Virus record (IMG/VR): IMGVR_UViG_3300036784_000146
Span: 1 to 64,000 of that record
Direction: 5' to 3' (one strand)
Length of the DNA stretch: 64,000 bases
Origin: a virus
Taxonomy: Duplodnaviria > Caudoviricetes
In this document: in pieces, positions 17,896-47,305 of the stretch
How the letters are laid out: every line of letters begins with the position of its first letter
Position numbering within the stretch: position 1 is the stretch's first letter
Program-made: the position numbers and the translations under genes
The notes under the pieces: generated by a model
Databases searched by the model: none
Seen by the model: the letters and a program-made list of their open reading frames with translations, nothing else
What the model was told of the DNA's origin: nothing

Positions 17896-18582
17896 ATGAC
17901 GCTCGTAACTATCGATGCCGTGGCCACAGGCCAGGTTATCGCCGGACCCAACCCCAACGTCAACGGGGGCTGGAATCACCCTTCGGGGGCAAACGCCGGG
18001 GTCATCCTGGTGGGCTTTCAATACAACACCACGGCGCCCATTGCCAAGACCATTACGCGCACCATCACCGCCGGGGGTCATCCCCTGGTTCGCCTCAAGC
18101 CCTTGCAAGGGGTAAACCGAGGCGGCAAGGGCTGGGGTGCCCCCAAGTCCGGCCGGGTCGAGGTCTGGGGCGGTGTGGGGGCGGCGGCCGCCGGGGGAGC
18201 CGTCGTGGTGAATTTGGGCTATAGCCCGCTCCCTGGGGGACCTCCCACCATCAACTTCACTCAGTTCAGCGGCGTCTCGCTGACCTATAACGGCTGCAAT
18301 ACGCTACCCGATCCGGCGTTGAACAAGGGCTGTGACGAGCGCAGCGGCTGCGGTCGGATAATCTCGGTGCCCCTTTCAAACTTCATGGACGCGTTGGCGG
18401 TGGTTTTCGTCGGCAGCGATTCCGCCATCCCCGTAAATCCTCCACACGCCACCACCCGCTTCAAGGACGCCAACTCCCAGCTGTGGGTCGGTGACCACCA
18501 GGGTCCGGGCACCATCCGGATGGGGAATACAGCTCCCGGGGGCAAGTGGGGATCGGCGACGGTCAACCTCATGCCGATCTGA
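17896..18582 (+). CDS. Putative structural/fibre-associated beta protein
   Basis: Beta/Gly-rich; late-type motif and GAGGAGG upstream. Confidence 0.6.
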   Translation: MTLVTIDAVATGQVIAGPNPNVNGGWNHPSGANAGVILVGFQYNTTAPIAKTITRTITAGGHPLVRLKPLQGVNRGGKGWGAPKSGRVEVWGGVGAAAAGGAVVVNLGYSPLPGGPPTINFTQFSGVSLTYNGCNTLPDPALNKGCDERSGCGRIISVPLSNFMDALAVVFVGSDSAIPVNPPHATTRFKDANSQLWVGDHQGPGTIRMGNTAPGGKWGSATVNLMPI

Positions 18583-19418
18583 TGACGCTCTACTACCCTG
18601 ACTGTTCCAATAACAACTGGGGCAACGAGAACTGGACCCAGCAGGGCCAGGACAATTTGATGAGCTTCTTGTCTCAGCTGGTCGGCCAGGGCTTTGCGGG
18701 CATGTGTCACAAGATGAGTCAGGACAACTCCTACATCGACCCCTACGGCGCGATCTGTCAGACCTGGTGCGCACAGAACAACGTGCCGTTCATCGGCTAC
18801 CACTACGTGGGCACCTCTGACGCAGGTAGCCAGGCCGCCAACTGGAAAGCTGCAGGTGGGGGCGTCAACGCCATGTTCGACTGGGAGGCAGGGTCGGGCA
18901 ACCTGGACGAGTTCTGGGCCTGCGTCAACGCGTTCAACAACGCCGGAGTCAACGTTCAGCTGGCGTATGACCCGCGCTGGTATCTGGAAGGGGCTGGATC
19001 GGGCGCGGGCACCGACATCTCCAATTTCGCCGCCAACGGCATCCTGCTGGTCAGCTCGGCCTACCCGCTGGGCTCTCAAGTCGGTTATGCCTCCGATCTC
19101 TACGCCCAGTGCGGCGGGGACACAGGCCAGGGCTGGTCTCCCTACGACGGGGGCCCACCCCCGGCAGCCTGGCAATTTACCAGCTCGGCGAACATCGCGG
19201 GCTTCAGTGGCGTGGATTGCAACGCTTACCTGGGGGCTGACATCAATGTTCTCTTTGGTGCTGTCGCTGCTCCTCCCCCTGTTACGCCTCCACCGGTGGT
19301 TACACCGCCACCGACGCCGGTGCCACCGGTGGTTATCTCGACCATCCCCGACCTCTCCCAGGTCGGAGACCAGCTCTTCACCGCGACATCCGCCCTATCA
19401 GCCCAGTTCGGAGTGTGA
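18582..19418 (+). CDS. GH25-like muramidase (lysin A glycosidase module)
   Basis: PDCSNNN start, GYHY, MFDWE, WQFTS...VDCN; Pro-rich tail. Confidence 0.8.
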   Translation: MTLYYPDCSNNNWGNENWTQQGQDNLMSFLSQLVGQGFAGMCHKMSQDNSYIDPYGAICQTWCAQNNVPFIGYHYVGTSDAGSQAANWKAAGGGVNAMFDWEAGSGNLDEFWACVNAFNNAGVNVQLAYDPRWYLEGAGSGAGTDISNFAANGILLVSSAYPLGSQVGYASDLYAQCGGDTGQGWSPYDGGPPPAAWQFTSSANIAGFSGVDCNAYLGADINVLFGAVAAPPPVTPPPVVTPPPTPVPPVVISTIPDLSQVGDQLFTATSALSAQFGV

Positions 19419-20827: not shown

Positions 20828-23014
20828 ATGGACCTGTTCACCCAGTCGCTGGCCAAGCCAGCGCCATGGGACTCGATCGTCGACTTCATCACGCACCCGA
20901 GCTATTGCGGTCGACGGTTGTACCCCAGGCAGCAGACCGCGTACCGGTTGATCTACCTGGAAACCGACCAGATGACGGCCTACGACCTGGACGTCATAGA
21001 AGAGTGGCGCCAGGGCTTCCTGCGCCGTCGCGACGTCTTCGGGGTGCAGCCCGACATCTGGGAGCGTGTCCAGTACCTCAAGGAGCACGGTTACCGGCGC
21101 TTCCCGCACATTCAGTTCGTGCTGGGCCGCCGTGGTTCCAAGGGTCTGATGGGCGGCGGTCTGGGCGCCGAGCAGATCGCTTACTTCTTCAGCCTCGACG
21201 ACTGGCAGGCCCATTACGACATAGATAAGGGCCAGAACGGTGTGCTGGCCGTAGTGGCCACCAATCAGAGCCAGGCTCAGCGCTTCCAGTTCGCCGACGT
21301 CCGGCGCACCGTCGAGCGCTGCAAGTATCTGCAGCCCCATATCGCGACGTCCAAGGACCACTTCTTCTCGATCCGCACCCCGGCCGACATCCGCTACATC
21401 GCCGAGCTGAAGGCGGCCAAGGTCCACGTCGAGCACGAGATCGCCAGTCTCACAGCGGTGGCCCTGTCGTCCAGCTCGTCGGCCGGTCGTGGTGGTGTGG
21501 GCTTCGCCAACTTCTATGACGAGATGGCGCACATGGTGCTGGGCACCGGCTCGGTGAAGTCCGGCGAGGAGATCTACAACGCGTGGCAGCCCAGCCTCGA
21601 CCAGTTCGCCAAGGACGGCCTGACGGTGGTTCCCAGCTCGCCGTTCACCAAGATCGGCGTCTTCTTCAAGCTCTACCAGGATGGCCGCGTCTGGATGCCC
21701 AACTATCGGGGCGAGATGGTCGAGCAGACCGAGTTCTCGCTGGGTATCGATGCCGAGGAGGAGATCAACAAGGTCGCCGACCCTGAGATGCTGATCCTGC
21801 AACTGCCCAGCTGGGGGCTCTACGAGGACTGGGAGCGCGGGCCCGAGCTGATCGGCCGCGTGATCAAGCGCCCCATCACCTACAAGCCCGAAGGCGACAA
21901 GCCCGAGAACGTTCGTATGCGGCGGTTGGAGATCAAGAATCCCGACAAGTTCAAGGTCGAGCGTCGTGGTCAGTTCGCCGAGGTCGAAGGTGCCTACCTG
22001 GATCCGCTGGCCGTGGAGGCCATGTTCAAGACACCGGACTGGCGCCCCAAGCTGGAAGCGCAGTCGCGCGGGTACCTGGTCCATCCCTACCGGATTCACT
22101 GCGACCCGTCGCGTACCAACGCCAACTTCGCGTTGGCGATCGGGCACACCGAGATCGCACCGTGCGATAAGTGCGGGGCCAGTCCCGAGCACGCCGAGCG
22201 TTACCACCCCTGCATGGCTTGCCTACAGCGCCGCGAGGAGCTTCCCGGCATGCACTGGCCGCATGTCATCTTCGACCTGCTGCACGTGTGGCGTCCCGGC
22301 GACAGCCAGCCCGACGAGGACGGCCGCCGCAAGATCGATTACATCCAGGTCATGAACGACATCATGGGCCTACTGGATCGGTTCCCGTCGACCAAGAAGC
22401 TCTCCTTCGACCAGTACGACTCCGCGTTGGGTATCGCTCAGCTGCGCAAGAAGTACTCTCCGCGCATCCAGATCGGCGAGGTGCTGTTCACCGAGAAGGA
22501 CAACCAGCGCCGCATGGAGCGCTTCAAGAGCGCGCTCAACCTGGGCTGGATGCACTCCTACCGCGACCGCTTCTACGACGAGGAGGCGGGCGGCTCGCTG
22601 CTGGAAATGGAGATGAAGTTCCTCGCCGAGCGCCAGGGCAAGGTGGTCAAGCAGGAGATCGGTCCGGTCACCACAAAGGACCTGTTCGACTCCGTCTCGG
22701 TGGTGGCCACTGAGCTGCTCAAGGACTCCCTGGACCGCTACAGCGGTAAGGACCTGGCCCGGCCATCGGTCGGCTCTACCGAGGTCGCTGGGCTGCGCTC
22801 AGGCCGCGAGTTCCAGCGGGTCGGTGGCACCAGCAGCGTGCACGCCATGTTGGCCGAGCAGCTGGCCGGTAGCAGCACCCCGGCCCGGGACATGATCGGC
22901 GTCAACCGCGCCGAGCGGTCCCGGCGCACGGCCTATCAGCCCAGCCGGACCGAATCTATTCGGGCCCGCGCGATGCCGACCCAGATGCCGAGAGCCGGTA
23001 GGCGCGGGCTATGA
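20828..23014 (+). CDS. terL: Terminase large subunit
   Basis: LYPRQ adenine-binding motif, GRRGSKG Walker A, FANFYDE Walker B, RNase H-like HCDPS, FDQY, KDLFD. Confidence 0.9.
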   Translation: MDLFTQSLAKPAPWDSIVDFITHPSYCGRRLYPRQQTAYRLIYLETDQMTAYDLDVIEEWRQGFLRRRDVFGVQPDIWERVQYLKEHGYRRFPHIQFVLGRRGSKGLMGGGLGAEQIAYFFSLDDWQAHYDIDKGQNGVLAVVATNQSQAQRFQFADVRRTVERCKYLQPHIATSKDHFFSIRTPADIRYIAELKAAKVHVEHEIASLTAVALSSSSSAGRGGVGFANFYDEMAHMVLGTGSVKSGEEIYNAWQPSLDQFAKDGLTVVPSSPFTKIGVFFKLYQDGRVWMPNYRGEMVEQTEFSLGIDAEEEINKVADPEMLILQLPSWGLYEDWERGPELIGRVIKRPITYKPEGDKPENVRMRRLEIKNPDKFKVERRGQFAEVEGAYLDPLAVEAMFKTPDWRPKLEAQSRGYLVHPYRIHCDPSRTNANFALAIGHTEIAPCDKCGASPEHAERYHPCMACLQRREELPGMHWPHVIFDLLHVWRPGDSQPDEDGRRKIDYIQVMNDIMGLLDRFPSTKKLSFDQYDSALGIAQLRKKYSPRIQIGEVLFTEKDNQRRMERFKSALNLGWMHSYRDRFYDEEAGGSLLEMEMKFLAERQGKVVKQEIGPVTTKDLFDSVSVVATELLKDSLDRYSGKDLARPSVGSTEVAGLRSGREFQRVGGTSSVHAMLAEQLAGSSTPARDMIGVNRAERSRRTAYQPSRTESIRARAMPTQMPRAGRRGL

Positions 23015-23274
23015 GCACACCCATCAGATACGACGGCGGTTTCCAGGAGGCGATGAAGCCAGTGGCTAGAGACACGAGGGCACTTACTGACGAGGTCGAG
23101 CACTTCGACGAGCCCACCGGCGACATGAAGCGCGCCGCCCGGCGCGTCTGTGCCGCTTTCGCCACCGACGCCGAAGAGGCCGCCATGTTCATGAAGATGT
23201 GCGGGGTGCATCCCTCCCAATGGAAGGATCCGGTTCCCTCTGGCGTCTCTCACCCGCCGTCAAGGATCGTGTGA
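23011..23274 (+). CDS. Hypothetical protein
   Basis: ATGA overlap. Confidence 0.65.
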   Translation: MSTPIRYDGGFQEAMKPVARDTRALTDEVEHFDEPTGDMKRAARRVCAAFATDAEEAAMFMKMCGVHPSQWKDPVPSGVSHPPSRIV

Positions 23275-23600
23275 TGAGAAGCCCCTTTCAGTTCGGGCGG
23301 GTGGAGGAAGACGACCCCAACGCCTGGAAGTTGAAAGGGGCTTGCAGGGCTCGCCATCGTGACGGGAGTCTGGTGCACAACCCGGAGATCTTCTTCCCCG
23401 AGAACCGCGCCGAGCGATATCAGCGTCCGGGCAAAAAGATCTGTGCCCACTGCCCGGTGATCGAGCAGTGTCGTGCGCACGCCATGGTCTTCGATGAGTT
23501 CGGTATCTGGGGTGGCCTGAGCGAGTACGACCGCCGCCACCTCAAGAAGCAGGACCGGCAGAAGTTTCTTGCGGCAGCTGGCCGTTTGCGGGCTGGATAA
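23274..23600 (+). CDS. whiB: WhiB-family transcription factor
   Basis: W...AC, FFP, C..CPV...C, GIWGGLSE.DR. Confidence 0.95.
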   Translation: MRSPFQFGRVEEDDPNAWKLKGACRARHRDGSLVHNPEIFFPENRAERYQRPGKKICAHCPVIEQCRAHAMVFDEFGIWGGLSEYDRRHLKKQDRQKFLAAAGRLRAG

Positions 23601-28365: not shown

Positions 28366-28438
28366 AGGGGCGTAGCTCAGAGGATAGAGCAGCGGTTTAC
28401 GGAGCCGCTTGTCGCAGGTTCGACTCCTGTCGCCCCTA
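28366..28438 (+). tRNA. tRNA-Arg (anticodon ACG), CCA not encoded
   Basis: Acceptor AGGGGCG/CGCCCCT; D arm GCTC/GAGC with GGA (A20 Arg identity element); anticodon loop TTACGGA; T loop TTCGACT. Confidence 0.93.
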
Positions 28439-28459
28439 CGAAAAGAAAGGAGACACACC

Positions 28460-30559: not shown

Positions 30560-32379
30560 ATGAGCGATCAATTCCACCTGCACCTGAACGTCAAGGGTGC
30601 CGCCATCGTCGAGGACCCTGCCAGTGCGGTGGGTGACATCTTGATCAAGGCGGCCGCCAAGGTCCGCGCGGGCGAGCAGTTCGGCCGGATCTTCGACGAG
30701 AACGGCAACCGCGTCGGCTTCTGGCACTTCGGCGATGAAGGAGATCAATCATGACCCAGCACAAAGGCCTGATCCTGCACGTCTACCGAGCAGCTGACAG
30801 TCGTGACTGCACCCTTGGCGGGGTCAGTAGCAAGCACGCCGGGCTCACCCTGGTCGGTTTCAAGCGTCACGCCGACGAGAAGTGGCAGCCGCTGGAACGG
30901 TATGCGCAGGTCTTCGAGCCCAACGAGGACCGTCCGGCGGTGATCCTGGTGGAGTCCGGCGTGCCCCATCTCTACGGTCCCCACCTGGTGCCTTTGGAGA
31001 TCATCGAGAGCGGACGCTACCCCATGATGGGTGGCAACTATGCCGGGACTTCCGATTCGCGTTGGGCCGAGTTGGGCCACACGATCTTCGGCCATGACCG
31101 GCTGGACGTGGTGGCGGTGCACGACCGAGTGGAGTTCTGAGCAGGGAATATACCTGTCAGGTAAAGCGTCCCTAATACTGGAAGGAGGCGATAAAATGCC
31201 GAGCATTATGGCCCAGTGGGAGCTGGCTGCGATCATCAAGCAGCGTCAGTTTGCCCAGGAGAACGGCCTATCCATGTCCCCGTCGATGGAGGAGTCTTAC
31301 CGGATGCTTCCTGCGCTGCAGGCTGGCCTGGACCAGGCCTTGGACATGATCTTGCTGCTCGACCAGCACCCCGAGCTGGCTGCGCACATACCCCCGGGAG
31401 GAGTGCCCCAGGAATGAGCTACTACTACCCTTACCCACCACCGCCGCCGCCGCCGAGGCACAGCTATCGGAAGTGGATCTTGGCAGCTGGCGGGATCTTC
31501 ATCGCGGTGATCGGCTTCGTGGCCATCGTGGTGGCAATCAAGAGCCCGTCGGCGCCCAGCTACAGCCCGGCCGAGCAGAAGTTCCTGACCGCCGTCAGAG
31601 AATCACAGCCGGGGCCCTGGGAAGACGGCAGCAGCTACATCCCGTGGCCATCTGACGCCGAGCTGGTCAAACAGGGCCATGCGCTCTGCGAGTTGGATTC
31701 CGCAGGGGGGCACTATGACCGTCTCGTGCGCAAATGGGGGTATCCCTCCTGGCAGGGTGTCGACCTGGATTCTCTTGCCGACAACATCCTCTGTTCGCAG
31801 AACTCGGTTTTCGCCGGGCAGGACATATGACCAAAGCACGCACGCGCGGACGCATCATCCGCATCGCCAGCGAACAGGGCTGGCAGGTCGTCGAGCCCCA
31901 GCCCAGCTCGCTCTACCTCGTTCGCGGGCAGGCTCGCATCTCTCTGCAGTTCGGTGCGCGCTCTGGCCGGTTAGTCGGCGCCATTCATTCCCGGCCTGGC
32001 GTGACCGAGCAGCCCAAGCAGGCCAAGCTGGCGTTCACCGTGGGCTGGTTGACTGAGGAGAGGGTCTAAGGTGCCTTGACGGGTTACCGTTAGGCTCATG
32101 CCTCTTGCACACACCAAAGACCTCGACACGCTGGCGGCCTGGGCCGAAGAGCTGGGCTGGGAGCTGATCGAGACCAATCCGCCGATCCTGGTCAAGGCCG
32201 GACGGCGCCTGCAGCTGAAGTTCAACGGCGCGGGCAAGATCAACGGCATGAGCTGGACCGGCGGATCTGAGCATGGCGACATGATGTCGGGGGCCTGCAG
32301 CTTCCGCCGGGTGCGTGAATGGATGCAGACCGCACTAGACAAGCCACCGCCGACGGATCCCGACGACAATCTCCCCTAG
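30560..32379 (+). CDS. Small genes (30560-30754, 30751-31140, 31196-31417, 31414-31830 DUF732-like membrane-anchored, 31827-32069, 32098-32379)
   Basis: Overlapping stops/starts; 31414 has a TM then EQKFL..V / LVKQGHALC. Confidence 0.6.
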
Positions 32380-32444
32380 ACTTTCCTACAATTTTGCCTT
32401 AATCTGGGTCCAGCACTGGAATTAACCCGGAAGGTAAACTACAC

Positions 32445-32744
32445 ATGTCTTTCTTGGCAACACTTCCCGCTGACATCGCCGCCACCGCTGGCGGGCTCGC
32501 CGGGCTCGGCGCGACCGTTACCGCCGCCCACTCGGCGGCCGCCGGACCGTTGGGGGCTGTCGTTCCTCCGGCGCCGGAGCCGACGTCGATCTTGGCGGCT
32601 ATGGCTCACCAGACCCATCACGGCGTCTACCAGGCTGCTGCCAGCGTGGCCGACGCCATCCACGCCATGTTCACCGGAACCATGGGCGTCTCGGGTGTCA
32701 CCTATGACCTCGCCGAGGCGGCCACGGCGCTCACGATGTTCTAG
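32445..32744 (+). CDS. PE-family protein (PE domain only)
   Basis: MSFL.T.P start, VVPPAPEPTS, HAMF, C-terminal YDLAE (YxxxE); 99 aa, directly upstream of the PPE. Confidence 0.9.
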   Translation: MSFLATLPADIAATAGGLAGLGATVTAAHSAAAGPLGAVVPPAPEPTSILAAMAHQTHHGVYQAAASVADAIHAMFTGTMGVSGVTYDLAEAATALTMF

Positions 32745-32747
32745 GCC

Positions 32748-33980
32748 ATGGACTACGGGGCGGAGCCGCCGGAGGTCAATTCCGGCCGCATGTATGCGGG
32801 GGTGGGCAGTGGGCCACTGATGGCGGCAGCAGCTGCCTGGCAAGCCCTGGCCGTCGAGCTGGGGATGTCGGGGGCGGTGTACTCCCAGATGATTGCCAGC
32901 CTGCTCGGGTCCTGGATGGGCCCTTCCTCGGCCGCAATGGCTGCCTCCGCCGCTCCTTACGTGGCGTGGATGATTCAGGCCGCCCTGCAGTGCGAGGAGC
33001 ATGCAGTGGCTACTGCGGCCACCGCAGCCTCCTTCGAGACCGCGCTTGCCGGGGTGATTCCGCCGCCGTTGATCGCCGAGAACCGGACCGAGCTGGCCAC
33101 CTTGGTGGCGACCAACTTCCTGGGCGTCAACACTCCGGCGATTGCCGCCAACCAGGCCGAGTACGCCGAGTTCTGGGCTCAGGACTCTTCCACGCTGTAC
33201 AGCTACGCCGGAGAGATGTCGGCCATCCTGGGCGGGCTGATGCCGTTCACGCCGCCGATGCTCAACACCGATCCGGCCGGGCTGGCGGCTCAGGCCGCCG
33301 CCGTCGGCACCGATACCGGGCAGTCAGCCGGACAGGCGGGCCAGACCGTCAGCGGCGTCGGCACCACGATGCCCGGGGCTGCCTCTCCTGCCAGCTCGAT
33401 GCTCGCCGCCGGTCCGTCGATGGTCGGCATGATCCCTCAGGCCCTGCAATCGCTGGCCTCTCCGGCCACCTCGCTGATGAGCGGGGGCGGTCTGTCCAGC
33501 CTCGCCGGGCAGTTCCAGTCGCTGATGGGCCCGTTCATGAGCATGGGCGCGATGGGCTCGTTCACCAACGCTTTCAGTAGCGGCTTGAGTAGCTCGCTGG
33601 GCTCGGGACTCGGCTCGTTGGGCTCTCTGTCGTCCAACGCCAATCTTGGTGGTGGCTATGTCGCCAGCATGGGCCGCGCGGTAGGTGTGGGCGCAGGTCC
33701 CACCAAGCTGTCGGTGCCCGTCTCCTGGGGCCAGACCACCGGCTCCCCTACCAGCCCGTTGATCCGCCCGCTGTTGGCCGCCGAGACCGAGGCCGCACCG
33801 GCGGCCGGTGCGCAGGCGGGGATGATTCCGCCCGGCGTGGGCACCATGGCCGGTGCCGGTCAGCAGCAGGGTGGCACTCCGGGTTTCACAAGCCTTATCC
33901 CAGCCGGGATGAGAGGGAGTCTGGGCAAGGAGGGCGACCCCAATTCCCGTCAACCACAGTTCACCAACTATCTGGTGTGA
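32748..33980 (+). CDS. PPE-family protein, SVP subfamily
   Basis: MDYGAEPPEVNSGRMYAG.GS, WMG (WxG), ATNFLGVNTPAIA, YAEFWAQD, C-terminal LSVPVSW. Confidence 0.95.
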   Translation: MDYGAEPPEVNSGRMYAGVGSGPLMAAAAAWQALAVELGMSGAVYSQMIASLLGSWMGPSSAAMAASAAPYVAWMIQAALQCEEHAVATAATAASFETALAGVIPPPLIAENRTELATLVATNFLGVNTPAIAANQAEYAEFWAQDSSTLYSYAGEMSAILGGLMPFTPPMLNTDPAGLAAQAAAVGTDTGQSAGQAGQTVSGVGTTMPGAASPASSMLAAGPSMVGMIPQALQSLASPATSLMSGGGLSSLAGQFQSLMGPFMSMGAMGSFTNAFSSGLSSSLGSGLGSLGSLSSNANLGGGYVASMGRAVGVGAGPTKLSVPVSWGQTTGSPTSPLIRPLLAAETEAAPAAGAQAGMIPPGVGTMAGAGQQQGGTPGFTSLIPAGMRGSLGKEGDPNSRQPQFTNYLV

Positions 33981-33995
33981 AAAAGGAGAAACGAA

Positions 33996-34643
33996 ATGAC
34001 TCAGCAGTTTTGGGAGATCACCATCATCGGCGTCCTCGTCGTCCTGATGGTCGGCATCTTCGTGATGGGCAACGTCGTCAACCGTGACCGGTTGAACAAT
34101 GCGCTCAACGATGCCGCAAAAAAGCCCATCGAGTTGCATCAGCAACTGCTGGCGCGCGAAGACGCGGGAGTGAAGGCTCTGGGTATCGTGGCGGATCTGG
34201 TTCAGGAAAACGGCCGACAACTCGCTCACATGCGCGAGGTTGGCGTTCCGGTTATCACCCGCCCGGTGAACGGCCGCGACGAGGCGGTCGTGGTACGAGC
34301 TGCCGTTACAAAGTAGGCGGCGCCGATGACAGCCCAGCGGGTGGTGCTCCCACCACCAACACCACTGGTTCCTGACGGCCAGTGGTGGCTGGTGCTGGAT
34401 CCCGACGGCGTCACGGTCACGCTGGCGATCATGAACGGCACCAACATCGTCGCGTCGGAGGTCGCCGCGATGCCGGGCGGCATGCGCCGGGGCAATTTGA
34501 AAGTGCCCGGCGAGCTGAAGCGGATGGCCGTCGACATCAACAACCGGATCGAGTATCGCGAGTATCTGAGCAAGGAGCTGGGAGGACAGGTCACCGTGGA
34601 ACTCATGCACGTCGGCAACATGGGGATGTGGTCACATGACTAG
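33996..34643 (+). CDS. Two hypothetical genes (33996-34316 single TM; 34326-34643)
   Basis: AAGGAG RBS; N-terminal hydrophobic helix in the first. Confidence 0.7.
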
Positions 34644-35214
34644 TGGCTTCAGCGTCGACCCGAGCCAGCTGTTCGTCGCCGGGAACGGCCACCTGGAATA
34701 CATCGATCAGCTCGGTCAGCTCATCGACTTCGGCCCGGCCCCTAATGACTGGCCCAGCTCGGCCGGGGTGGCGACATCGCGTCAGGGCAAGAACGCCATG
34801 ACATCGGCCATGATGGCCCAGCTGGGTCAGCACGGGGCCACCCTGGGCGCCAACGCCGGGTCCTACGAGGCCCAGGAGGGGGCCAACAAGGCCAAGCTGG
34901 ACACCGGCGGCATGAAGGATATGGCGGGACTGATGACGTCCAGCATGAAGGATGTCGGCGGCCTGGCTACCAACACGTTCAAGGACGTGGAGGGCATCTT
35001 CGGTACCGCCGGTCAGGTCACTGCTGCGGCGGGAGGCAGTCTCGGGGGTGCTGCAGCCTCGGCGTCAGCCTCGTTCATGGGCAAGGTCTCGCCTCCGGCG
35101 TCGACTGCTCATGCCGTGACACCCACCTCGGGCACTCCGGAGTCCGCTGCACCGGCCGGGGCTGACGACGACGGGAGGAAGCACGATGGCACCCACGCTC
35201 AGCAGCATTCGTAA
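34636..35214 (+). CDS. Putative T7SS substrate, PE/EspC-like with YxxxE signal
   Basis: FSVDPSQL start, helix pair, GSYEAQE at ~aa 76-80. Confidence 0.6.
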   Translation: MTSGFSVDPSQLFVAGNGHLEYIDQLGQLIDFGPAPNDWPSSAGVATSRQGKNAMTSAMMAQLGQHGATLGANAGSYEAQEGANKAKLDTGGMKDMAGLMTSSMKDVGGLATNTFKDVEGIFGTAGQVTAAAGGSLGGAAASASASFMGKVSPPASTAHAVTPTSGTPESAAPAGADDDGRKHDGTHAQQHS

Positions 35215-36196
35215 CTACGACCCGCGCTGGTTGCTGGACGACGCCAGCCACAGCCGCCGGGTGGCCAATGGCTGGACCGACGCCTGGTCCGGTGCCTACA
35301 GCAGCGTCGAGGGGATCCCATGGACCGGCACCGGCAGGGAGGCCGCGCTCGCCGCGCACGGCGCCGACCTCAGCCGGGCGCAATCCCACGCCGCCACTCT
35401 GACCGCTAGCGCCGCGACGACCGAGCAGACCTATCACGACCTCGTCAACGAGCGGGACGCGCTGCTCCGGCAGGTCGACCAGGCGACGAACGAGGGCTAC
35501 CAGGTGACCGAGAGCTTCACCGTGATGCCCGGGCCGAAGATGAAGGGGGCCGAGGTCATCCTGCGCGCGCCGGATATGGCGCAGAAGACCGCCGCGCTGA
35601 CCGAGGCGGCTGGGCAGCTGTTCGCCAACGATGCGGCCGCCGGTGCCGCTGTGGCCGCCCCGGCCGCGACGTTCGCCGACGCGCCGATGGCGGTAGCCCA
35701 CAACGGAGTGCAGCTGGTGGATAAGGTGACCCCGATTCCTTCCCCTGGCGACCTGTCGTCGATCGCGCCGCCCGACATGCCCGATACGTCCGCTCCATTC
35801 TTGGACGGGTACCAGGCCAGCATCGGAGCGACTCCGCCGCAGACCGGGGAGCCCGTGGCACCGATGCCAACCAGCCGTCCGCCGAACGTCCCCAAGGGAG
35901 TGCCGCTCCCGCCGGTCATGACCAAGCCCCCGCCCAACGACGGGGTCTTTGAGCCGGGTCCCGACCCGGGCTTCACCGAGGAGAATCCCAGGACGGGTCC
36001 GGTGCTCGGCGCTGCGGTGATGGGCGGGACATTGGGCTGTGAGACCGGAGCAGGATGGGCGGCCGCCCTTTCGGCCCCGGTGATCCCCGCCGAGGCTATT
36101 GCGGTGCCCGTTGGATGTGCCACCGGAGCTGCCATCGGTGCAGCTCCGCCGTTGCTGTACCCCTGGGTCGACAACTTGTTGGAAGGAGGTGGGTGA
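35186..36196 (+). CDS. Putative T7SS substrate: WXG100-like N-terminus, Pro linker, hydrophobic Gly-zipper-like C-terminus
   Basis: PTLSSIRNYDP start, WTG at the helix turn, GY.VTE.FTV, VQLVD linker. Confidence 0.7.
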   Translation: MAPTLSSIRNYDPRWLLDDASHSRRVANGWTDAWSGAYSSVEGIPWTGTGREAALAAHGADLSRAQSHAATLTASAATTEQTYHDLVNERDALLRQVDQATNEGYQVTESFTVMPGPKMKGAEVILRAPDMAQKTAALTEAAGQLFANDAAAGAAVAAPAATFADAPMAVAHNGVQLVDKVTPIPSPGDLSSIAPPDMPDTSAPFLDGYQASIGATPPQTGEPVAPMPTSRPPNVPKGVPLPPVMTKPPPNDGVFEPGPDPGFTEENPRTGPVLGAAVMGGTLGCETGAGWAAALSAPVIPAEAIAVPVGCATGAAIGAAPPLLYPWVDNLLEGGG

Positions 36197-36303
36197 TGCC
36201 CCCGCGCGTGTACCGGTTCTGGAAGCGCTGCCAGCTGGGGACGTTCGAGCTGCTCGTCGCTGCTTCGGCCGTCGGCTGGATCATTCATCTCGTGACGCGG
36301 TGA
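36196..36303 (+). CDS. 35-aa membrane peptide
   Basis: TGATG coupling; one TM helix. Confidence 0.5.
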   Translation: MPPRVYRFWKRCQLGTFELLVAASAVGWIIHLVTR

Positions 36304-36437
36304 AACCTGTCGGTGGGTCGCGTTAGATTCGGTTCGTCAAAGAAAACGGCGCTCTGACGTTGGCATTGTAGGAACATTAGGGTAAAGTTGGAGCCAGTTA
36401 AGCCCGACCGGGGCTTCGAGAAAGGAAGACACACACC

Positions 36438-37619
36438 ATGACCGCAGCAACAGAAGCATTCCCCACCCGCGTAGACCGCGAGCGGGACGTCCGGAAGGTC
36501 CTGGACTACCTCAACCAGCAGCAAACCATCAAGCGCGACTTCGTCGTCCCGGCCTCGGTGCTCAGCTTCGACATCGGCGATATGATCGTCGACGCCGCCA
36601 ACCTCGTGATGGACGAGGAGGGTGTCACCGACGTCAACGGCCGCTACGAGCTGTCCGGCCACGCGCTGAACCAGCTCGCCGACATCTTCAAGATTCCCGG
36701 CCGCTACCTCAAGCGCTGCCGCTCGGAGAAGGTGTCGCTGTTCGACGCCAACCTGAACGGGTGGGTCGAGGAAGATGCGCGCTCGTTCCTCCTGCGGACC
36801 TTCGTGCACAACGCCGAGGACCGCAACTACCTGCGGGCGATCCTGTCCAACGGCTACGGGATCATGGACAACATCGACGTCCTGATGTCGGCCATCCAGG
36901 GTCTGGCTCAGGTGCAGCTGCCCAGCGGTGGGTTCCTGGGGCCGCAGAACATCCGCGACATCCAGGTGACCGAGTCCCGCCTGTACATCCGGGTCGAGGC
37001 TCCCGAGATCACAGCCGTCGGCGGCGAGTACGTCAAGGGCCTGCGCAGCCCCTTCCGGGGTACCGGCCACGGTGGGGTCTCCGCCGAGCACCCCGAGCTG
37101 GTGCACGCCGGGTTCGTCATCACCAACTCCGAGGTGGGTGACGGTGCCTTCAACGCTACCGGCGAGGTGATCGCGAAGGTCTGCGACAACGGCGCCCAGA
37201 TGCGCGACAGCCGGATCCGCAAGGTCCACGTCGGCGAGCGGTTGGACCACGGTCACATCAAGTGGTCGGCGGACACCCAGGCGGCCGAGGTCAAGGCCAT
37301 GCAGCTGAAGGTGCGCGATGCCTTCACCTCCTTCCTGACGGTCGAATGGTTGGAGGAAGCGGTGGCCAAGCTGAACAAGGACGCCGGACACCCGGTGGAG
37401 GACGTTCAGAAGACCATCGAGGTGGTCTCCAACCAGCTGCAGTTCAACCAGGACGAGCAGGCCGCCATCATGCGGATGTTCTTCGACGGTGGCCAGCGGA
37501 CCTCCGGCGGGGTGGCGAACGCCATCACGGCTGCCGCCCAGACCATCGAGGATGCCGATCGGGCGAACTACTTCACCGAGGTGGCCGTCGACGCGATGAA
37601 GATTGCCGCCACGGTGTAA
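36438..37619 (+). CDS. DUF932-family protein
   Basis: RAILS.GY, ITNSEVGDG, VCDNG, NAITAAAQ. Confidence 0.75.
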   Translation: MTAATEAFPTRVDRERDVRKVLDYLNQQQTIKRDFVVPASVLSFDIGDMIVDAANLVMDEEGVTDVNGRYELSGHALNQLADIFKIPGRYLKRCRSEKVSLFDANLNGWVEEDARSFLLRTFVHNAEDRNYLRAILSNGYGIMDNIDVLMSAIQGLAQVQLPSGGFLGPQNIRDIQVTESRLYIRVEAPEITAVGGEYVKGLRSPFRGTGHGGVSAEHPELVHAGFVITNSEVGDGAFNATGEVIAKVCDNGAQMRDSRIRKVHVGERLDHGHIKWSADTQAAEVKAMQLKVRDAFTSFLTVEWLEEAVAKLNKDAGHPVEDVQKTIEVVSNQLQFNQDEQAAIMRMFFDGGQRTSGGVANAITAAAQTIEDADRANYFTEVAVDAMKIAATV

Positions 37620-39310: not shown

Positions 39311-39799
39311 ATGACCGCACCCGATCCGGCTTGGGTTGTCCAGCAACAGGTATTCCCTCCCGGCCCGCAGCCGCCGGACGCCATCACCATGTACGACGGC
39401 GCTGTGCAGGCCAAGAACGGCTTCGGGCCGTGGAAGGCTTGGGACCTCCGGGGCTGGCTGAACCGGCTCGTCTGGGACCTGCTGCGGTTCCAGACCATCG
39501 ACTCCGGCAAGCCCAACGCCGACCGCACCGTCCCCTACGGCCTGCGCGACAGCGTCAGCGCGATCTGGTACCTCACCGACCAGAACAACCAGCTGCTGAA
39601 GGCCATCGCCACCAAGGTCGGCGCCGACACCACTCACCTGGTGATGGCCCAGAAGGACGTGCAGGAGGCCGCGCTGGCCAACGAGGCCTTCGTCGCCTCG
39701 GTGCGTGAGCACCTGACCGCGATGGAGGACACCCTCAGGGCCAGCGGTGTCGTCAACCCCGGGCTGCTGCGGCAGGCCGGTCTGCACGTGGTGCTCTGA
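39311..39799 (+). CDS. Lysis-region hypothetical protein
   Basis: AGGAGG RBS; QNNQLLKAIA.KVG LysA-tail-like helix. Confidence 0.55.
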   Translation: MTAPDPAWVVQQQVFPPGPQPPDAITMYDGAVQAKNGFGPWKAWDLRGWLNRLVWDLLRFQTIDSGKPNADRTVPYGLRDSVSAIWYLTDQNNQLLKAIATKVGADTTHLVMAQKDVQEAALANEAFVASVREHLTAMEDTLRASGVVNPGLLRQAGLHVVL

Positions 39800-39800
39800 C

Positions 39801-40739
39801 ATGCCGGGCCCCATGCTCGTCACGGTCAACGGGACCGGCGTTCCGGATCCGTTTGGGCCGGGCTTCTCCGGCGATCTCGGCCGGGCGTTGACCAATCCCT
39901 GGAACGGCATCGCCGCCCAGTTCTGGGGACAGGGTGCCGACCAGGCCTACGGCAGGTTCATTTTCTGGCAACCGATCGGCTATCCGGCGGGCGTCTTCCC
40001 GATGAACCCGTCGGTCAATACCGGTGTCGCCGAGGTCAGCCGCCAGGTCACCTTGCACGAGGCCGACGGCAGTTGCCCGCCCGGCTACCCGCTGTTCCTC
40101 TCGGGGTACTCGCAGGGCGCTTTGGTGACGAATGTGTTCTGGCGTGATTTCGTGTTAAACCCCAACGGGCCACACAACAACCGGCTGAACGACATCGTGG
40201 ACCTGGGCGGCATCATCAACTTCGGGGACCCGATGGCCTGTCCCGGGGTGTACAACGGCAACATCGCCGCCGGGTTCGCCAAGCCCAAGCTCCTGGACGG
40301 TGTCATCCCCGGCGGCATCGCCGGACCGGGATGCCTGACCCCGGCGCAGACCCCTGATTGCCTACTGACGTGCGGACTGGACGGGGACCTCTATGGTGCC
40401 GCGCCGGTCGGACCGGCCAGCCTGCCGGTCTTACCTACCGGGGCCCCTTGGGTCAAAGAGCCCCTGGTCGGCCAGATCGAGACCCGCATCTATGGCTTCA
40501 TCGAGAGCGGCTCGATATTGACCGGCCTCATGGCCGTCGCCGAGGGTGTGGCCCAGGAGTTCGAGCAGCCGCTGTCCAACACGATCGCCCTGGTGCACGC
40601 CATCTTCAACGGCATGGGCTTTGCGGCCCAAGGAACAAACGCACCGCACTGGCGTTATCAGGGATTTATCCCTCCCATGGTCGGTTGGATCATCAGGCGG
40701 GCCCAGACTTCGATGGCTCGGATCGCGGCGGCCGCCTGA
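39801..40739 (+). CDS. lysB: Lysin B (mycolylarabinogalactan esterase)
   Basis: TVNGTG, WQPIGYPA..FPM, GYSQGA nucleophile elbow, FGDP, GDLY, PH. Confidence 0.92.
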   Translation: MPGPMLVTVNGTGVPDPFGPGFSGDLGRALTNPWNGIAAQFWGQGADQAYGRFIFWQPIGYPAGVFPMNPSVNTGVAEVSRQVTLHEADGSCPPGYPLFLSGYSQGALVTNVFWRDFVLNPNGPHNNRLNDIVDLGGIINFGDPMACPGVYNGNIAAGFAKPKLLDGVIPGGIAGPGCLTPAQTPDCLLTCGLDGDLYGAAPVGPASLPVLPTGAPWVKEPLVGQIETRIYGFIESGSILTGLMAVAEGVAQEFEQPLSNTIALVHAIFNGMGFAAQGTNAPHWRYQGFIPPMVGWIIRRAQTSMARIAAAA

Positions 40740-44372: not shown

Positions 44373-44732
44373 ATGATTGGCACGGTGTGCCAAGGCTGCA
44401 AGCAGCTCGCCGAGATCGCCCACACCGATAGCCTCGGCCTCGGCTACTGCGCTCGGTGCGCCAAGGACATCCCAATCCAAAGCGAGACACTGGGTTTGGA
44501 GTACCTGATAGCCAACCCCCCGTTCTTCCCCGGCGATCGAGTAGAGTGCCGGACCGGCGGAGAGATTTTCGACGGAGTCGGAACCGTCCAGGAGATGAGT
44601 TTCGATTTCGAGCACGGGGGAACTTTGATCTATCCTGCCTTCCGCGTGACCATCGACGAACCTGCCAACGAGCACAGTCCGGTCGAAGGCTGGTGGACCG
44701 AGGTCTGCTTGAAGAAGGTGGGTAAGCCATGA
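44373..44732 (+). CDS. Hypothetical protein (Zn finger plus SH3-like)
   Basis: Two CxxC pairs; FFPGDRVEC. Confidence 0.65.
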   Translation: MIGTVCQGCKQLAEIAHTDSLGLGYCARCAKDIPIQSETLGLEYLIANPPFFPGDRVECRTGGEIFDGVGTVQEMSFDFEHGGTLIYPAFRVTIDEPANEHSPVEGWWTEVCLKKVGKP

Positions 44733-47305
44733 CGGCGCCGGGCGGGCGGTTCTGGACCGGCAACCCCGATGCCGAGATGCGCCGTCTGCGGGCGGCCGGG
44801 GCCACGCTCCCCAACTCCGCGCCGAGGGCCCGGCTGGAAGCCAAACGCTTCGGCGATCAGATACGCAGCGGCTCCCTGGTGGACAACACCAACCGGATGA
44901 TGGGTGCCGACTTCCGGCGCCGCCGGGCCTCAGGCCTGCGTACCGGTGCCAACGTCCAGATGGCGATGCCCAAGTTCCGCACCCCGCTGGGCTCCCTGGA
45001 AGACAAGAACGTCCCGTTCAACGTCGAGGACCGCAAGGAGCTGCAGGAATGCCGCCGGTGGGCGCGGGCCTTCTATATCACCCACGACCTGGTCCCGCTG
45101 CTGATCGACATCTACGCGCGCTTCCCGCTGGTTGGCTTGGAGTTCAAGAGCACCGACCCGCTGATCGAGAAGTTCTACACCCAGATGTTCCTCAACGACC
45201 TGGACTACGAGAACTTCCTGCCCGACAGCCTGGGCCGCGAGTACTACGTCGCCGGTGAGGTCACCACGCTGGCTCATTTCAACGAGTCGCTGGGCATCTG
45301 GTCGTCGGAGGAGGTCCTCAACCCCGACTTCGTGCGGGTGTCCAAGGGCCTGTTCGTCGAGGAGGAACGTGTCCAGCTGATGGTCAAGGACCTCGTCGAC
45401 GGCCTACGCGACGGGCCGCAGGGGATGGGCCCCGACGAGGAGACCCGCAGCGAGCGCGAGGAGCGCCTCTACGAGTACCGCATGCTGGTGCAGAACTACC
45501 CCGAGATCATCCGCGCCGCCCAGATGGAAGACGGCCTGGACATCAGCCCGGCCAAGTGGAGCCGCATCGTCAACAAGAGCGCCCCGTGGCATGAGTACGG
45601 CACGCCGCCGCTGTTGCGCAGCTTCCGCACCCTGATGATGGAGGAGTCCCTCAACGCTGCTCAGGACGCCGTGGCGGACCGTTTGTACTCCCCGATGATC
45701 GTGGCCACCCTGGGCCTGGAAAACATGGGCGACGGGCTGCCCTGGATCCCGATGCAGTCCGACCTCGACGACCTGCGCGACGACATGCAGAACGCGTTCA
45801 TGGCCGACTTCAAGCTCGTCTGCCACCACATGGGCCTCAACGTGGAGAACGTCTTCGGCCGCGAGTCGGTCCCCCGATTCGATCAGGACTACGAGCGCAT
45901 CGACCTCAAGCTGATGCAGGCCTGGGGCATCGGCTCGGCACTGATCATGGGCGGCACCGGCGCGGCCGGTACCTACGCCAGCTCGGCACTGAACCGCGAG
46001 GTGTGCGAGCTGCTGATGAAGAGCTACCAGAAGAAGGTCATCCGCCACATCGTGAAGCGGATGGAAGTCATTGCCGAGGCCCAGCAGCACTACGCCTACG
46101 AGAAGAAGGGCGGCTACCGGCGGCCCCTCTACAAGGAGGTCGTGCAGTTCAACGAGGAGACCGGCGAGGAAGAGATCGTCCGCGTTCCGCAGCTGCTGAT
46201 TCCCAAGGTTGAGTTCGCCTCGCTCAACTTGCGCGACGAGACCCAAGAGCGTTCGTTCATGATGGAACTCAAGCAGGCCGGGGTGCCGATCAGCGACAAG
46301 AGCTTGGCGATCAACATCCCGATCGATTTCGAGCAAGAGCTGCCTCGCGGCGCCGACGAGACGGTCGACAAGCTGGTGGCCCAGGCCGAGGCGATGGGCA
46401 AGGCCCAGTCGATTATCGACCACAAGGACCTGCCGTACCCCGCCGAGCTGGCCCAGTACCTGACTCAGACCCTGATCCTGCGCCAGCAGCTGGCCCAGAC
46501 CAAGATGATGGAGGGCCAGGAGGAGATGCAGGAGACCGCCCAGCAGCAGCAGACTCCCGCCGGTGCGATGGGTGCACTGCCCGGCGTCCCGCCAGCTCCC
46601 CCGCCGCAGCCTGAGGGCGGCGAAGGCGAGGATGGCCAGTTGCCGCCTCCGGGCCCGATGCCCGTCCCGATGCTGCCCGGCGACGGCGGTCCGCCCATGG
46701 GCCCCGGTGGTCCGATGCCCATGCCGCCCCAGATGGCCTCTCCGGAGATGCAGACCGAGATGGGGCTGGTGGCCGCCAAGGGGCAGAAGCGCACGCCCTT
46801 CCAGGTCAATGCCCCACATGCCGGTGGCCCCGGAATCCTGCCGCCCGACATGGAGTTCGGCAACGAGAACGAGTTCGGAGGCGGACAGCCTTCCGAGGTC
46901 GTCGAGCCCCCGCGCAACCGCACTCGTCCCGAGGAGAGCGACGAGATGCGGGCCAACTCCCCGCGCAAGGCCACCCGGGTGGGCCGTAGCGGGATCCGCA
47001 AGAAGGCCGAGTTCGAGATGGACCCCAGCTCCTACGGCCACCGCAACCGGGTCAGCGAGAGCGCGGTGGAGAAGGCCGTCCGGCGCCGGGAGGCCCAGGC
47101 CAACCCGCCCCGGGTCGACGAGCTGATCCAGGACCCCAAGTTCTACGCCCTTACCGGCATCGGCGGTTACCAGGCCCAGATCCAAGGCGACTTCCCGCAC
47201 ATCATGGCCGGTGACGACGACGACAGCACCAAGGAGTCGATCCAGATTCTTGAGGACGCGTTACTGCAGTACGAGCGGCAAACAGGAGTGAGGCCGATAT
47301 GGTGA
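44729..47305 (+). CDS. Portal protein
   Basis: IDIYARFP, GEV, EEVLNPD, YGTPPLLR, AQDAVADRLYSP, YASSALN; position at the head of the capsid module; long Pro-rich C-terminus. Confidence 0.85.
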   Translation: MTAPGGRFWTGNPDAEMRRLRAAGATLPNSAPRARLEAKRFGDQIRSGSLVDNTNRMMGADFRRRRASGLRTGANVQMAMPKFRTPLGSLEDKNVPFNVEDRKELQECRRWARAFYITHDLVPLLIDIYARFPLVGLEFKSTDPLIEKFYTQMFLNDLDYENFLPDSLGREYYVAGEVTTLAHFNESLGIWSSEEVLNPDFVRVSKGLFVEEERVQLMVKDLVDGLRDGPQGMGPDEETRSEREERLYEYRMLVQNYPEIIRAAQMEDGLDISPAKWSRIVNKSAPWHEYGTPPLLRSFRTLMMEESLNAAQDAVADRLYSPMIVATLGLENMGDGLPWIPMQSDLDDLRDDMQNAFMADFKLVCHHMGLNVENVFGRESVPRFDQDYERIDLKLMQAWGIGSALIMGGTGAAGTYASSALNREVCELLMKSYQKKVIRHIVKRMEVIAEAQQHYAYEKKGGYRRPLYKEVVQFNEETGEEEIVRVPQLLIPKVEFASLNLRDETQERSFMMELKQAGVPISDKSLAINIPIDFEQELPRGADETVDKLVAQAEAMGKAQSIIDHKDLPYPAELAQYLTQTLILRQQLAQTKMMEGQEEMQETAQQQQTPAGAMGALPGVPPAPPPQPEGGEGEDGQLPPPGPMPVPMLPGDGGPPMGPGGPMPMPPQMASPEMQTEMGLVAAKGQKRTPFQVNAPHAGGPGILPPDMEFGNENEFGGGQPSEVVEPPRNRTRPEESDEMRANSPRKATRVGRSGIRKKAEFEMDPSSYGHRNRVSESAVEKAVRRREAQANPPRVDELIQDPKFYALTGIGGYQAQIQGDFPHIMAGDDDDSTKESIQILEDALLQYERQTGVRPIW

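Follow-up and report, generated by a model that had tools for sequence, protein, structure and literature searches.

The PE-PPE pair and its phage surroundings

This study concerns a pair of genes for a PE and a PPE protein in a phage genome. The pair lies in the window, the 64-kb stretch of DNA analysed here, which is the opening part of the IMG/VR virus record IMGVR_UViG_3300036784_000146 (143,610 bp, 96% complete according to CheckV). The PE gene (32445-32744, + strand) encodes 99 amino acids (aa) and is followed, after a gap of 3 nucleotides (nt), by the PPE gene (32748-33980, + strand), which encodes 410 aa. Proteins of these families have so far been described almost only from mycobacterial chromosomes and plasmids. 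The Pfam profile for PE (PF00934) matched residues 6-93 of the first protein over profile positions 3-90 of 91 with 48.5 bits (cut-off 22), and that for PPE (PF00823) matched residues 2-160 of the second with 184.4 bits (cut-off 26). An earlier account drawn from the letters of the DNA (the sequence-only reading) had proposed an intact pe-ppe operon carrying both halves of the composite signal for type VII (ESX) secretion, and both motifs were found at the places it gave: the export motif YDLAE (YxxxE) occupies PE residues 87-91 (32703-32717) and WMG (WxG) occupies PPE residues 56-58 (32913-32921). Y87 and E91 are invariant in the 11 aligned PE proteins and W56 and G58 in the 32 aligned PPE proteins, and the Pro-Pro-Glu tripeptide was read at PPE residues 7-9, with P8 and E9 invariant. 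The Pro-Glu dipeptide of the PE family (near residues 8-9) was not found, as P8 is invariant and residue 9 is Ala; the Glu is likewise absent from the aligned PE proteins of phage contigs and of plasmid-type (ESX-P) loci, and because of this its absence does not separate the phage protein from accepted members of the family.

Towards the C-terminus of the PPE, SVPVSW (SVPxxW) was read at residues 322-327 (33711-33728), in agreement with the SVP motif that had been placed at about 33705-33728; residue 321 is L, and S322, P324 and W327 are invariant in the 32 aligned PPE proteins. PPE-SVP proteins have been defined by SVPxxW in the C-terminal domain together with a length of 350-468 aa (PMC7028111), and the phage PPE has both. 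The sequence-only reading had also set the protein apart from the PE-PPE hydrolases, and we came to the same view: this identity was rejected, as the hydrolase domain (PF08237) is not among the Pfam hits, for the PPE even at E <= 5. PE and PPE are bona fide members of their families with every sequence hallmark of an ESX substrate heterodimer.

Among the structures in the PDB, the best match of both proteins is the complex 5xfs, in which PE8 of M. tuberculosis (5xfs_A) scores 49.7 bits against the phage PE and PPE15 (5xfs_B) scores 174.6 bits against the phage PPE, compared to about 90 bits for PPE41 and 78 bits for the ESX-3 substrate PPE4. PE8 and PPE15, crystallised with EspG5, are the nearest solved relatives of the pair. 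They are bicistronic and of similar sizes, like the phage genes; unlike these, they form a PPE-SVP pair on the chromosome of a slow grower, in the operon PE8-PPE15-EsxI-EsxJ with two Esx genes following. In the AlphaFold2 (AF2) model of the phage PPE, residues 1-173 are helical with a predicted local distance difference test score (pLDDT) of 77-92.

Relatives of the pair were sought in a collection of 5.8 billion proteins, and the nearest PPE proteins, 90% (L002) and 69% (L003) identical, are encoded on metagenome contigs from two other sequencing runs. Between the window and its near relatives, the ratio of nonsynonymous to synonymous substitution rates (dN/dS) is 0.09-0.17 for PE and 0.15-0.26 for PPE, with similar values in the N- and C-terminal halves of the latter. 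Both genes are kept under purifying selection, and their GC content at third codon positions (GC3) resembles that of other phage genes.

Since the record is a metagenome assembly, it could be argued that host DNA has been misassembled into a phage contig, or that the pair is a recently captured and non-functional host fragment, decaying as a passenger. The sequence-only reading, which had placed the pair within the phage under a recurrent phage motif, had itself raised chimeric assembly. Both junctions are repeated in the two independent runs: L002 and L003 keep the upstream genes (homologues of 31734-32069 and 32098-32379), the downstream genes and the upstream motif. Phage genes flank the block on both sides, the phage-specific motif stands immediately upstream of the pair, the frames are intact, dN/dS is low, GC3 is phage-like, and the nearest cellular relative is just about 55% identical. 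Chimeric assembly is very unlikely and was rejected, and we regard the artefact or decaying passenger as effectively refuted.

The phage nature of the surroundings can be read from the genes. Nearly all long open reading frames (ORFs) of the window are on the + strand, and the pair sits between the large terminase (20828-23014) and the portal (44729-47305), at 20.8 and 44.7 kb, respectively. Other virion proteins are also encoded in the window, as are two endolysins, one of lysin A type (18546-19418) and one of LysB/cutinase type (39747-40739), and members of the phage protein families phrog_6045 (30751-31140) and phrog_1362 (36438-37619) lie on the upstream and downstream side of the block. 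Mycobacterium phages of clusters AA (Phrappuccino) and C and large Gordonia phages have terminase and portal proteins that share just 50-58% identity with those of the window, and the phage is a distant new relative of these groups. Searches of its own genome found neither a tyrosine integrase nor a serine recombinase, and while such an absence in a metagenome record is weak evidence, nothing in the record points toward a temperate life style.

Relationship to plasmid-borne secretion loci

The origin of the pair was studied with unrooted trees of PPE N-domains, one of 116 and a careful one of 43 sequences, in which the chromosomal PPEs of slow growers are represented by sampled copies, including the ESX-5 loci of M. 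triplex and M. gordonae, with PPE15 outside the tree. Both trees split off a clade of 27 rows that contains the window PPE from the sampled chromosomal slow-grower PPEs (support 100/98 in the careful tree). Within this clade, one subclade (support 95/96) consists of PPEs that lie in complete secretion loci, among them those of pRAW of M. marinum, of a 380 kb plasmid, and of M. parascrofulaceum, M. fortuitum and M. wolinskyi. The gene order in three of these loci (L102, L104, L108) is eccB-eccC-PE-PPE-esx-esx-espG-ATPase-eccD-mycP-eccE-eccA, and the fetched stretch of pRAW has the same order up to mycP. In the M. wolinskyi locus, of ESX-P type, a gene resembling IS605 OrfB/TnpB is inserted between PE and PPE (L102:8733-10004).

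The other 14 rows of the clade include the window PPE, and the contigs were checked for nine of them (P0001, P0002, P0003, P0005, P0006, P0007, P0012, P0069 and P0089). Ecc genes are absent in all nine, and eight look clearly phage-like, with many small unidirectional genes and with genes such as those for WhiB, Lsr2, TerD, a PD-(D/E)XK nuclease and a Gp3-like protein. The ninth (P0069 on L111) is ambiguous and too short to call. On this 3.9 kb contig, PE, WXG100, WXG100, a 56-aa ORF and PPE stand in a row (L111:436-2774) with Ecc genes absent, which has the look of a complete set of ESX substrates without machinery; the PPE branches deep within the 27-row clade. The window pair belongs to a lineage of PE-PPE pairs on phage-like contigs, with the single PE-PPE pairs of ESX-P1-type loci as its nearest cellular relatives.

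The ESX-P1 loci, carried by pRAW of M. marinum E11, pMK12478, pMyong1 and related plasmids (PMC4779608), thus hold the closest cellular counterparts of the phage pair in the tree. In these loci a PE of 99 aa is directly followed by a PPE of about 400 aa, with invariant YxxxE, WxG and SVPxxW as in the phage. In contrast to the phage pair, they sit in a complete secretion locus, whereas the phage lacks the machinery, EspG and a canonical WXG100 pair; the phage PPEs, moreover, are not nested in the plasmid clade and the phage score for PF12484 (the PPE-SVP profile) is below threshold. Identity to the plasmid PPEs is 55-57% over PPE residues 1-239, and the split between phage and plasmid PPEs is old, though without direction in these unrooted trees.

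These results do not support, in the form it was given, the view of the sequence-only reading that the pair is a domesticated host module. Recent capture from a host chromosome was rejected, the nearest cellular PPEs being plasmid-type and about 55% identical, and the unit exceeds the pair itself. The same reading had argued from PPE-SVP proteins as ESX-5 substrates to a slow-growing host. The window PPE groups with the phage and ESX-P1 PPEs (100/98), away from the chromosomal slow-grower copies that were sampled, those of ESX-5 loci among them, and the growth class of the host was rejected as something to be told from the PPE alone, because its sister clade includes the fast growers M. fortuitum and M. 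wolinskyi as well as slow growers. Nevertheless, since ESX-5 is found on the chromosome only in slow growers and in the M. terrae complex (PMC4779608), a slow grower would be the likelier host. The ESX-P1-type organisation has been placed at the root of ESX-5 by Dumas et al. (PMC4779608).

The gene block and its upstream motif

The genes between 32445 and 36303 lie end to end or overlap, and the + strand from 31100 to 36400 showed nothing resembling a terminator, so the pair likely opens an operon of eight genes. Behind the PPE lies a gene for a 106-aa protein with an N-terminal transmembrane segment (33996-34316, +) preceded by AAGGAG; it has no Pfam or PHROG match, and a 73% identical homologue occurs at the same position in L002 only. 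The next gene, here called C (105 aa, 34326-34643, +), has homologues beside PE-PPE in L002, L003, L004 and L106, and weakly in L005. Its AF2 model consists of three strands and a long helix (pLDDT 70.5), and a fold search with it gave no significant match, the best being Rv1738 (E = 0.02, TM score about 0.35-0.40). D (192 aa, 34636-35214, +), with homologues in L002, L005 and L106, has an N-terminal part of helix-turn-helix form with an invariant WPS turn and a YxxQE motif, and the PE profile matches it weakly, below threshold (12.8 bits), over the YxxxE helix. E (336 aa, 35186-36196, +), with homologues in L005 and L106, consists of a helical N-domain with WxG, a Pro-rich linker and a Gly/Ala-rich hydrophobic C-terminus with two Cys; this C-terminal tail is Gly-zipper-like. 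The block ends with a 35-aa transmembrane ORF (36196-36303, +, in the frame of the ORF 36055-36303), the start of which overlaps the stop of E (TGATG).

With its N-terminal 170-200 residues, E defines a family of 820 representative clusters with variable C-termini, for which Pfam has no model. One member of the family has a sub-threshold PPE hit and another a tail of the alpha/beta-hydrolase type (Abhydrolase_8), and the pattern of the family resembles that of a secreted polymorphic effector. When the N-terminal parts of D and E were modelled together, the binding score was 0.74, while the best of three controls reached 0.00; at least 86% of the contacts recur between runs, and the pLDDT of the partners is at least 88. 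Among 80 solved complexes, 58 attained the mark of 0.74, as did 2 among 110 mismatched pairs; these counts are only rough here, since the alignments used were our own, and the pass of D and E may reflect likeness to solved Esx or PE-PPE bundles. D and E are thus predicted to bind each other as a second, divergent PE/PPE-like pair. On diverged contigs with PPEs 46-52% identical to that of the window, PE, PPE, C, D and E co-occur in shuffled order.

Upstream of the pair lies a copy of a recurrent phage motif, GAATTAACCCGGAAGGTAAACT (32419-32440, +), a possible promoter of the -10 type or an operator. It reads GAAT-N10-GGTAAACT with the ATG of PE 4 nt later, which confirms the site described by the sequence-only reading. 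The window holds seven copies of the motif (23602, 24404, 26638, 27695, 28712, 31146 and 32419, all +), compared to 0.99 expected, and none of 100 shuffles reached seven (with up to 2 mismatches). In the whole genome, GAAT-N10-GGTAAAC has about ten good copies, all on the + strand and all intergenic, in clusters at 23.6-32.4 kb and 98-101.5 kb (the genome copies beyond the window being at 97968, 99773 and 101509, +). The family form can be written as GAAT(A/T)(A/T)ACCTGNCAGGTAAAC, and most copies contain the palindrome ACCTGNCAGGT. After most copies there are 7-13 nt, then a ribosome-binding site of the GGAAGGAGG type and, 6-9 nt further, the start codon. The motif family probably serves one temporal class of genes, in two clusters of the genome, as promoter or operator, and the pair has this upstream motif in common with about nine other phage genes. 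Each copy was also seen to lie between the end of one gene, whose stop codon it directly follows, and a GTTCC..GGAAGGAGG leader. A gene for a WhiB-family regulator (23199-23600; PF02467, 64.5 bits) is found just upstream of the first copy, and a tRNA-Arg(ACG) gene (28366-28439) lies inside the small-gene region that bears the motif.

The copy in front of PE deviates from the others in that the ATG follows after 4 nt, a spacing kept in both L002 and L003. According to the sequence-only reading the PE gene is leaderless and has no Shine-Dalgarno (SD) sequence. In a leaderless mycobacterial transcript the first base is the A or G of the start codon, and a TANNNT -10 element stands about 6-7 nt before it. 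TAAACT ends 4 nt ahead of the ATG, which is shorter than usual, and if it is the -10 element, the PE mRNA would be leaderless. A conventional arrangement can be drawn as well. The motif holds an SD-like GGAAGG (32429-32434), and because of this the absence of an SD sequence would be true only if transcription begins past the motif. The register GGAAGG-TAA-N7-ATG has the spacing of the canonical site at 31180-31198, where the motif copy at 31146 shows GGAAGGAGG-N7-ATG. In addition, a consensus scan gave a sigma-70-like promoter candidate, ACGACA-18-TACAAT (32363-32392, +; 9/12 matches, a pattern match only), which would yield a leader of about 45 nt including GGAAGG. With GGAAGG in register and a candidate leader at hand, a leaderless start without an SD sequence is therefore no more than a possibility.

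A candidate set of ESX cargo

The explanation that we favour, at a probability of roughly 55%, is that the PE-PPE pair is functional and maintained by the phage, and that the block is a set of ESX cargo remodelling the mycobacterial envelope during infection. PE and PPE would form the usual four-helix bundle, which a host EspG chaperone of ESX-5 or ESX-P1 type would take up and the host ESX machine export. Searches of the phage's own genome gave no Pfam match for EspG, Ecc-type or WXG100 genes, and because of the absence of Ecc and EspG the pair would have to rely on those of the host. It is known that the export route of a PPE is set by its EspG-binding domain (PMC5311947) and that PPE-SVP proteins are ESX-5 substrates (PMC7028111). 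The pair could end up at the cell surface or in the mycomembrane, like PPE-SVP proteins, and serve there as an outer-membrane component, either as a channel or as an export helper for a co-inherited effector; PPE38 and the PE8-PPE15 operon have been described to aid the export of other substrates (PMC7028111), and ESX-5 controls outer-membrane permeability (PMC4418733). The block may also deliver the D-E pair, with its large subunit tipped by a glycine-rich hydrophobic end, and the 35-aa membrane peptide. An envelope-remodelling cargo set is favoured because of the known roles of PE/PPE proteins and the co-inheritance with D-E. We consider it likely that the pair is an exported ESX substrate pair, and the evidence leans towards action at the envelope; that it works together with D-E is a tentative suggestion.

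Several observations weigh against this interpretation. Metagenomes are the sole source of the phage, and the support for co-transcription of the block is gene spacing. The PPE scores 15.4 bits with PF12484, below the cut-off of 23 (E = 0.036), so that the name PPE-SVP given by the sequence-only reading holds for the SVPxxW motif and not for the profile; the protein is SVP-type by motif and size but not by the curated Pfam profile. Other checked PPEs of phage contigs are also without a precomputed PF12484 match, while those of ESX-P loci have one. In the AF2 model of the PPE the pLDDT of residues 174-410 is below 50, which leaves the C-terminal 237 residues, a low-complexity part, without a confident model. 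Linkage of PE-PPE and D-E is not universal, as L003 breaks off ahead of D, and in L004 just C and a weak E-like gene are present. Finally, profile-profile comparison (hhalign) of D with PE and of E with PPE detected no homology (probability 1.6% and 1.3%). The alignments place YxxxE on YxxxE and WxG on WxG, which we treat as no support for homology.

The permeability idea of the sequence-only reading can also be taken without the neighbouring genes. The exported pair would then form or modulate a small-molecule channel in the mycomembrane and let in more nutrients for phage replication. Both the permeability of the outer membrane and the uptake of nutrients depend on ESX-5 and its PE/PPE substrates (PMC4418733), the phage PPE has the size and the SVPxxW motif of PPE-SVP proteins, and some relatives hold PE-PPE without clear D/E homologues (L004). 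However, no channel-forming feature can be read in the sequence, the C-terminal domain being the part without a confident model, and C, D and E are repeatedly inherited together with the pair, which speaks for a shared function; we consider such a stand-alone channel unlikely.

As the phage supplies substrates and no machinery, and the PPE route depends on EspG binding (PMC5311947), the pair might instead saturate host EspG or ESX and halt the export of host PE/PPE proteins without reaching the surface. A decoy of this kind would need neither an invariant SVPxxW nor selection on the C-terminal half of the PPE, yet SVPxxW is invariant and this half, which does not bind EspG, is under equal purifying selection (dN/dS 0.19-0.31). 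Jamming of secretion or titration of the chaperone is thus highly improbable.

Known phage-encoded cargo offers a comparison for an envelope-remodelling cargo set. PEST cassettes (phage-encoded ESX-secreted toxins of Mycobacterium prophages; PMC10654092) are phage-borne and use host ESX secretion. They consist of a small partner and a large protein with an N-domain of WXG type, together a PE/PPE-like heterodimer, followed by a small immunity gene, and the part of the block with D, E and the 35-aa ORF fits this layout. According to the binding model, D and E would form a heterodimer, and the C-termini vary across the family of E, as in PEST cassettes; the WXG100 profile (PF06013) had no match anywhere in the phage at E <= 1. 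In contrast to the block, PEST cassettes have no true PE/PPE genes and are described for temperate prophages, mostly of M. abscessus, whereas here a canonical PE-PPE pair leads and an integrase was not detected. For the PPE there is a precedent in MAV_0790, a gene for a PPE-domain protein in prophage phiMAV_1 of M. avium 104 (PMC3986857). In the literature searched, no PE-PPE operon has been described in a phage genome, and the one-line mention of the phiMAV_1 PPE and the PEST cassettes are the only precedents.

The PPE had no match at E <= 1e-5 in a tblastn search of 50,697 deposited phage genomes, megablast of the locus against deposited phage genomes gave no match, and none of PE, PPE and the four proteins downstream has a family in PHROGs. 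A scan of IMG/VR with the single PPE protein found nothing, and an alignment-based scan found PPE genes in 14 other viral contigs, most of them solo, between tail-fibre-like genes and lysin A, and outside the clade of the window. As far as can be told, phage-borne PPEs are recurrent but undescribed, and the PE-PPE-led block is a new form of phage-encoded ESX cargo. We tentatively suggest that a mycobacteriophage lineage, several members of which are large and apparently lytic, carries a self-contained type VII cargo without machinery, composed of PE-PPE, a second PE/PPE-like pair and small membrane proteins, and sister to the substrate pair of ESX-P1 plasmids.

If this is true, phages join chromosomes and plasmids as a third carrier of PE/PPE genes, and they would plug their own substrates into the ESX system of the host, or of a resident plasmid, to rebuild the mycomembrane in infection. 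It would extend the known phage ESX cargo, the toxins of prophage PEST cassettes, to true PE/PPE proteins in a phage without a detectable integrase, and link phage genes to the plasmid ESX-P1 lineage that is thought to lie at the root of ESX-5. In pathogenic mycobacteria much of the coding capacity is devoted to PE/PPE proteins, most of which still lack a known function. Since a phage retains a gene only if it brings a benefit within the infection cycle, a selected phage pair with minimal partners is a compact natural experiment: in this simple system one can ask how PE/PPE acts at the envelope and which ESX and EspG accept it.

The solo PPEs bring up a different role, in which an exported PPE weakens or marks the mycomembrane and so aids release alongside LysB, or blocks later phages. 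In (pro)phage contigs of IMG/VR (L089, L091, L095, L098, L100 and L101) such PPEs sit between tail-fibre-like genes and lysin A/B, and the block of the window ends 3.5 kb ahead of the LysB-type endolysin. However, those PPEs are outside the clade of the window and have no detectable PE, at a tail-lysis junction unlike the place of the phage pair, and the block adjoins neither endolysin and bears the motif of the small-gene region (23.6-32.4 kb) rather than of the structural and lysis genes. We regard an accessory role in lysis or superinfection as quite unlikely for the window pair.

The solo PPEs on prophage-like contigs (L091:8001-9071, L098:8001-9041, L100:7998-9110, L101:7986-8966, L089:8001-9098 and L095:8001-9014) score up to 204 bits with PF00823, some also with PF12484 above threshold, and no PE was detected upstream of them. 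They lie directly after genes of tail-fibre type with Gp77/Gp80 domains and directly before, or at most 3 kb from, lysin A/B homologues. On a further viral contig, beside a PPE gene, we observed an unusual fusion, a 286-aa protein (L096:7078-7938) that joins an N-terminal PE domain (91.7 bits) to a C-terminal PPE-SVP region (73.7 bits).

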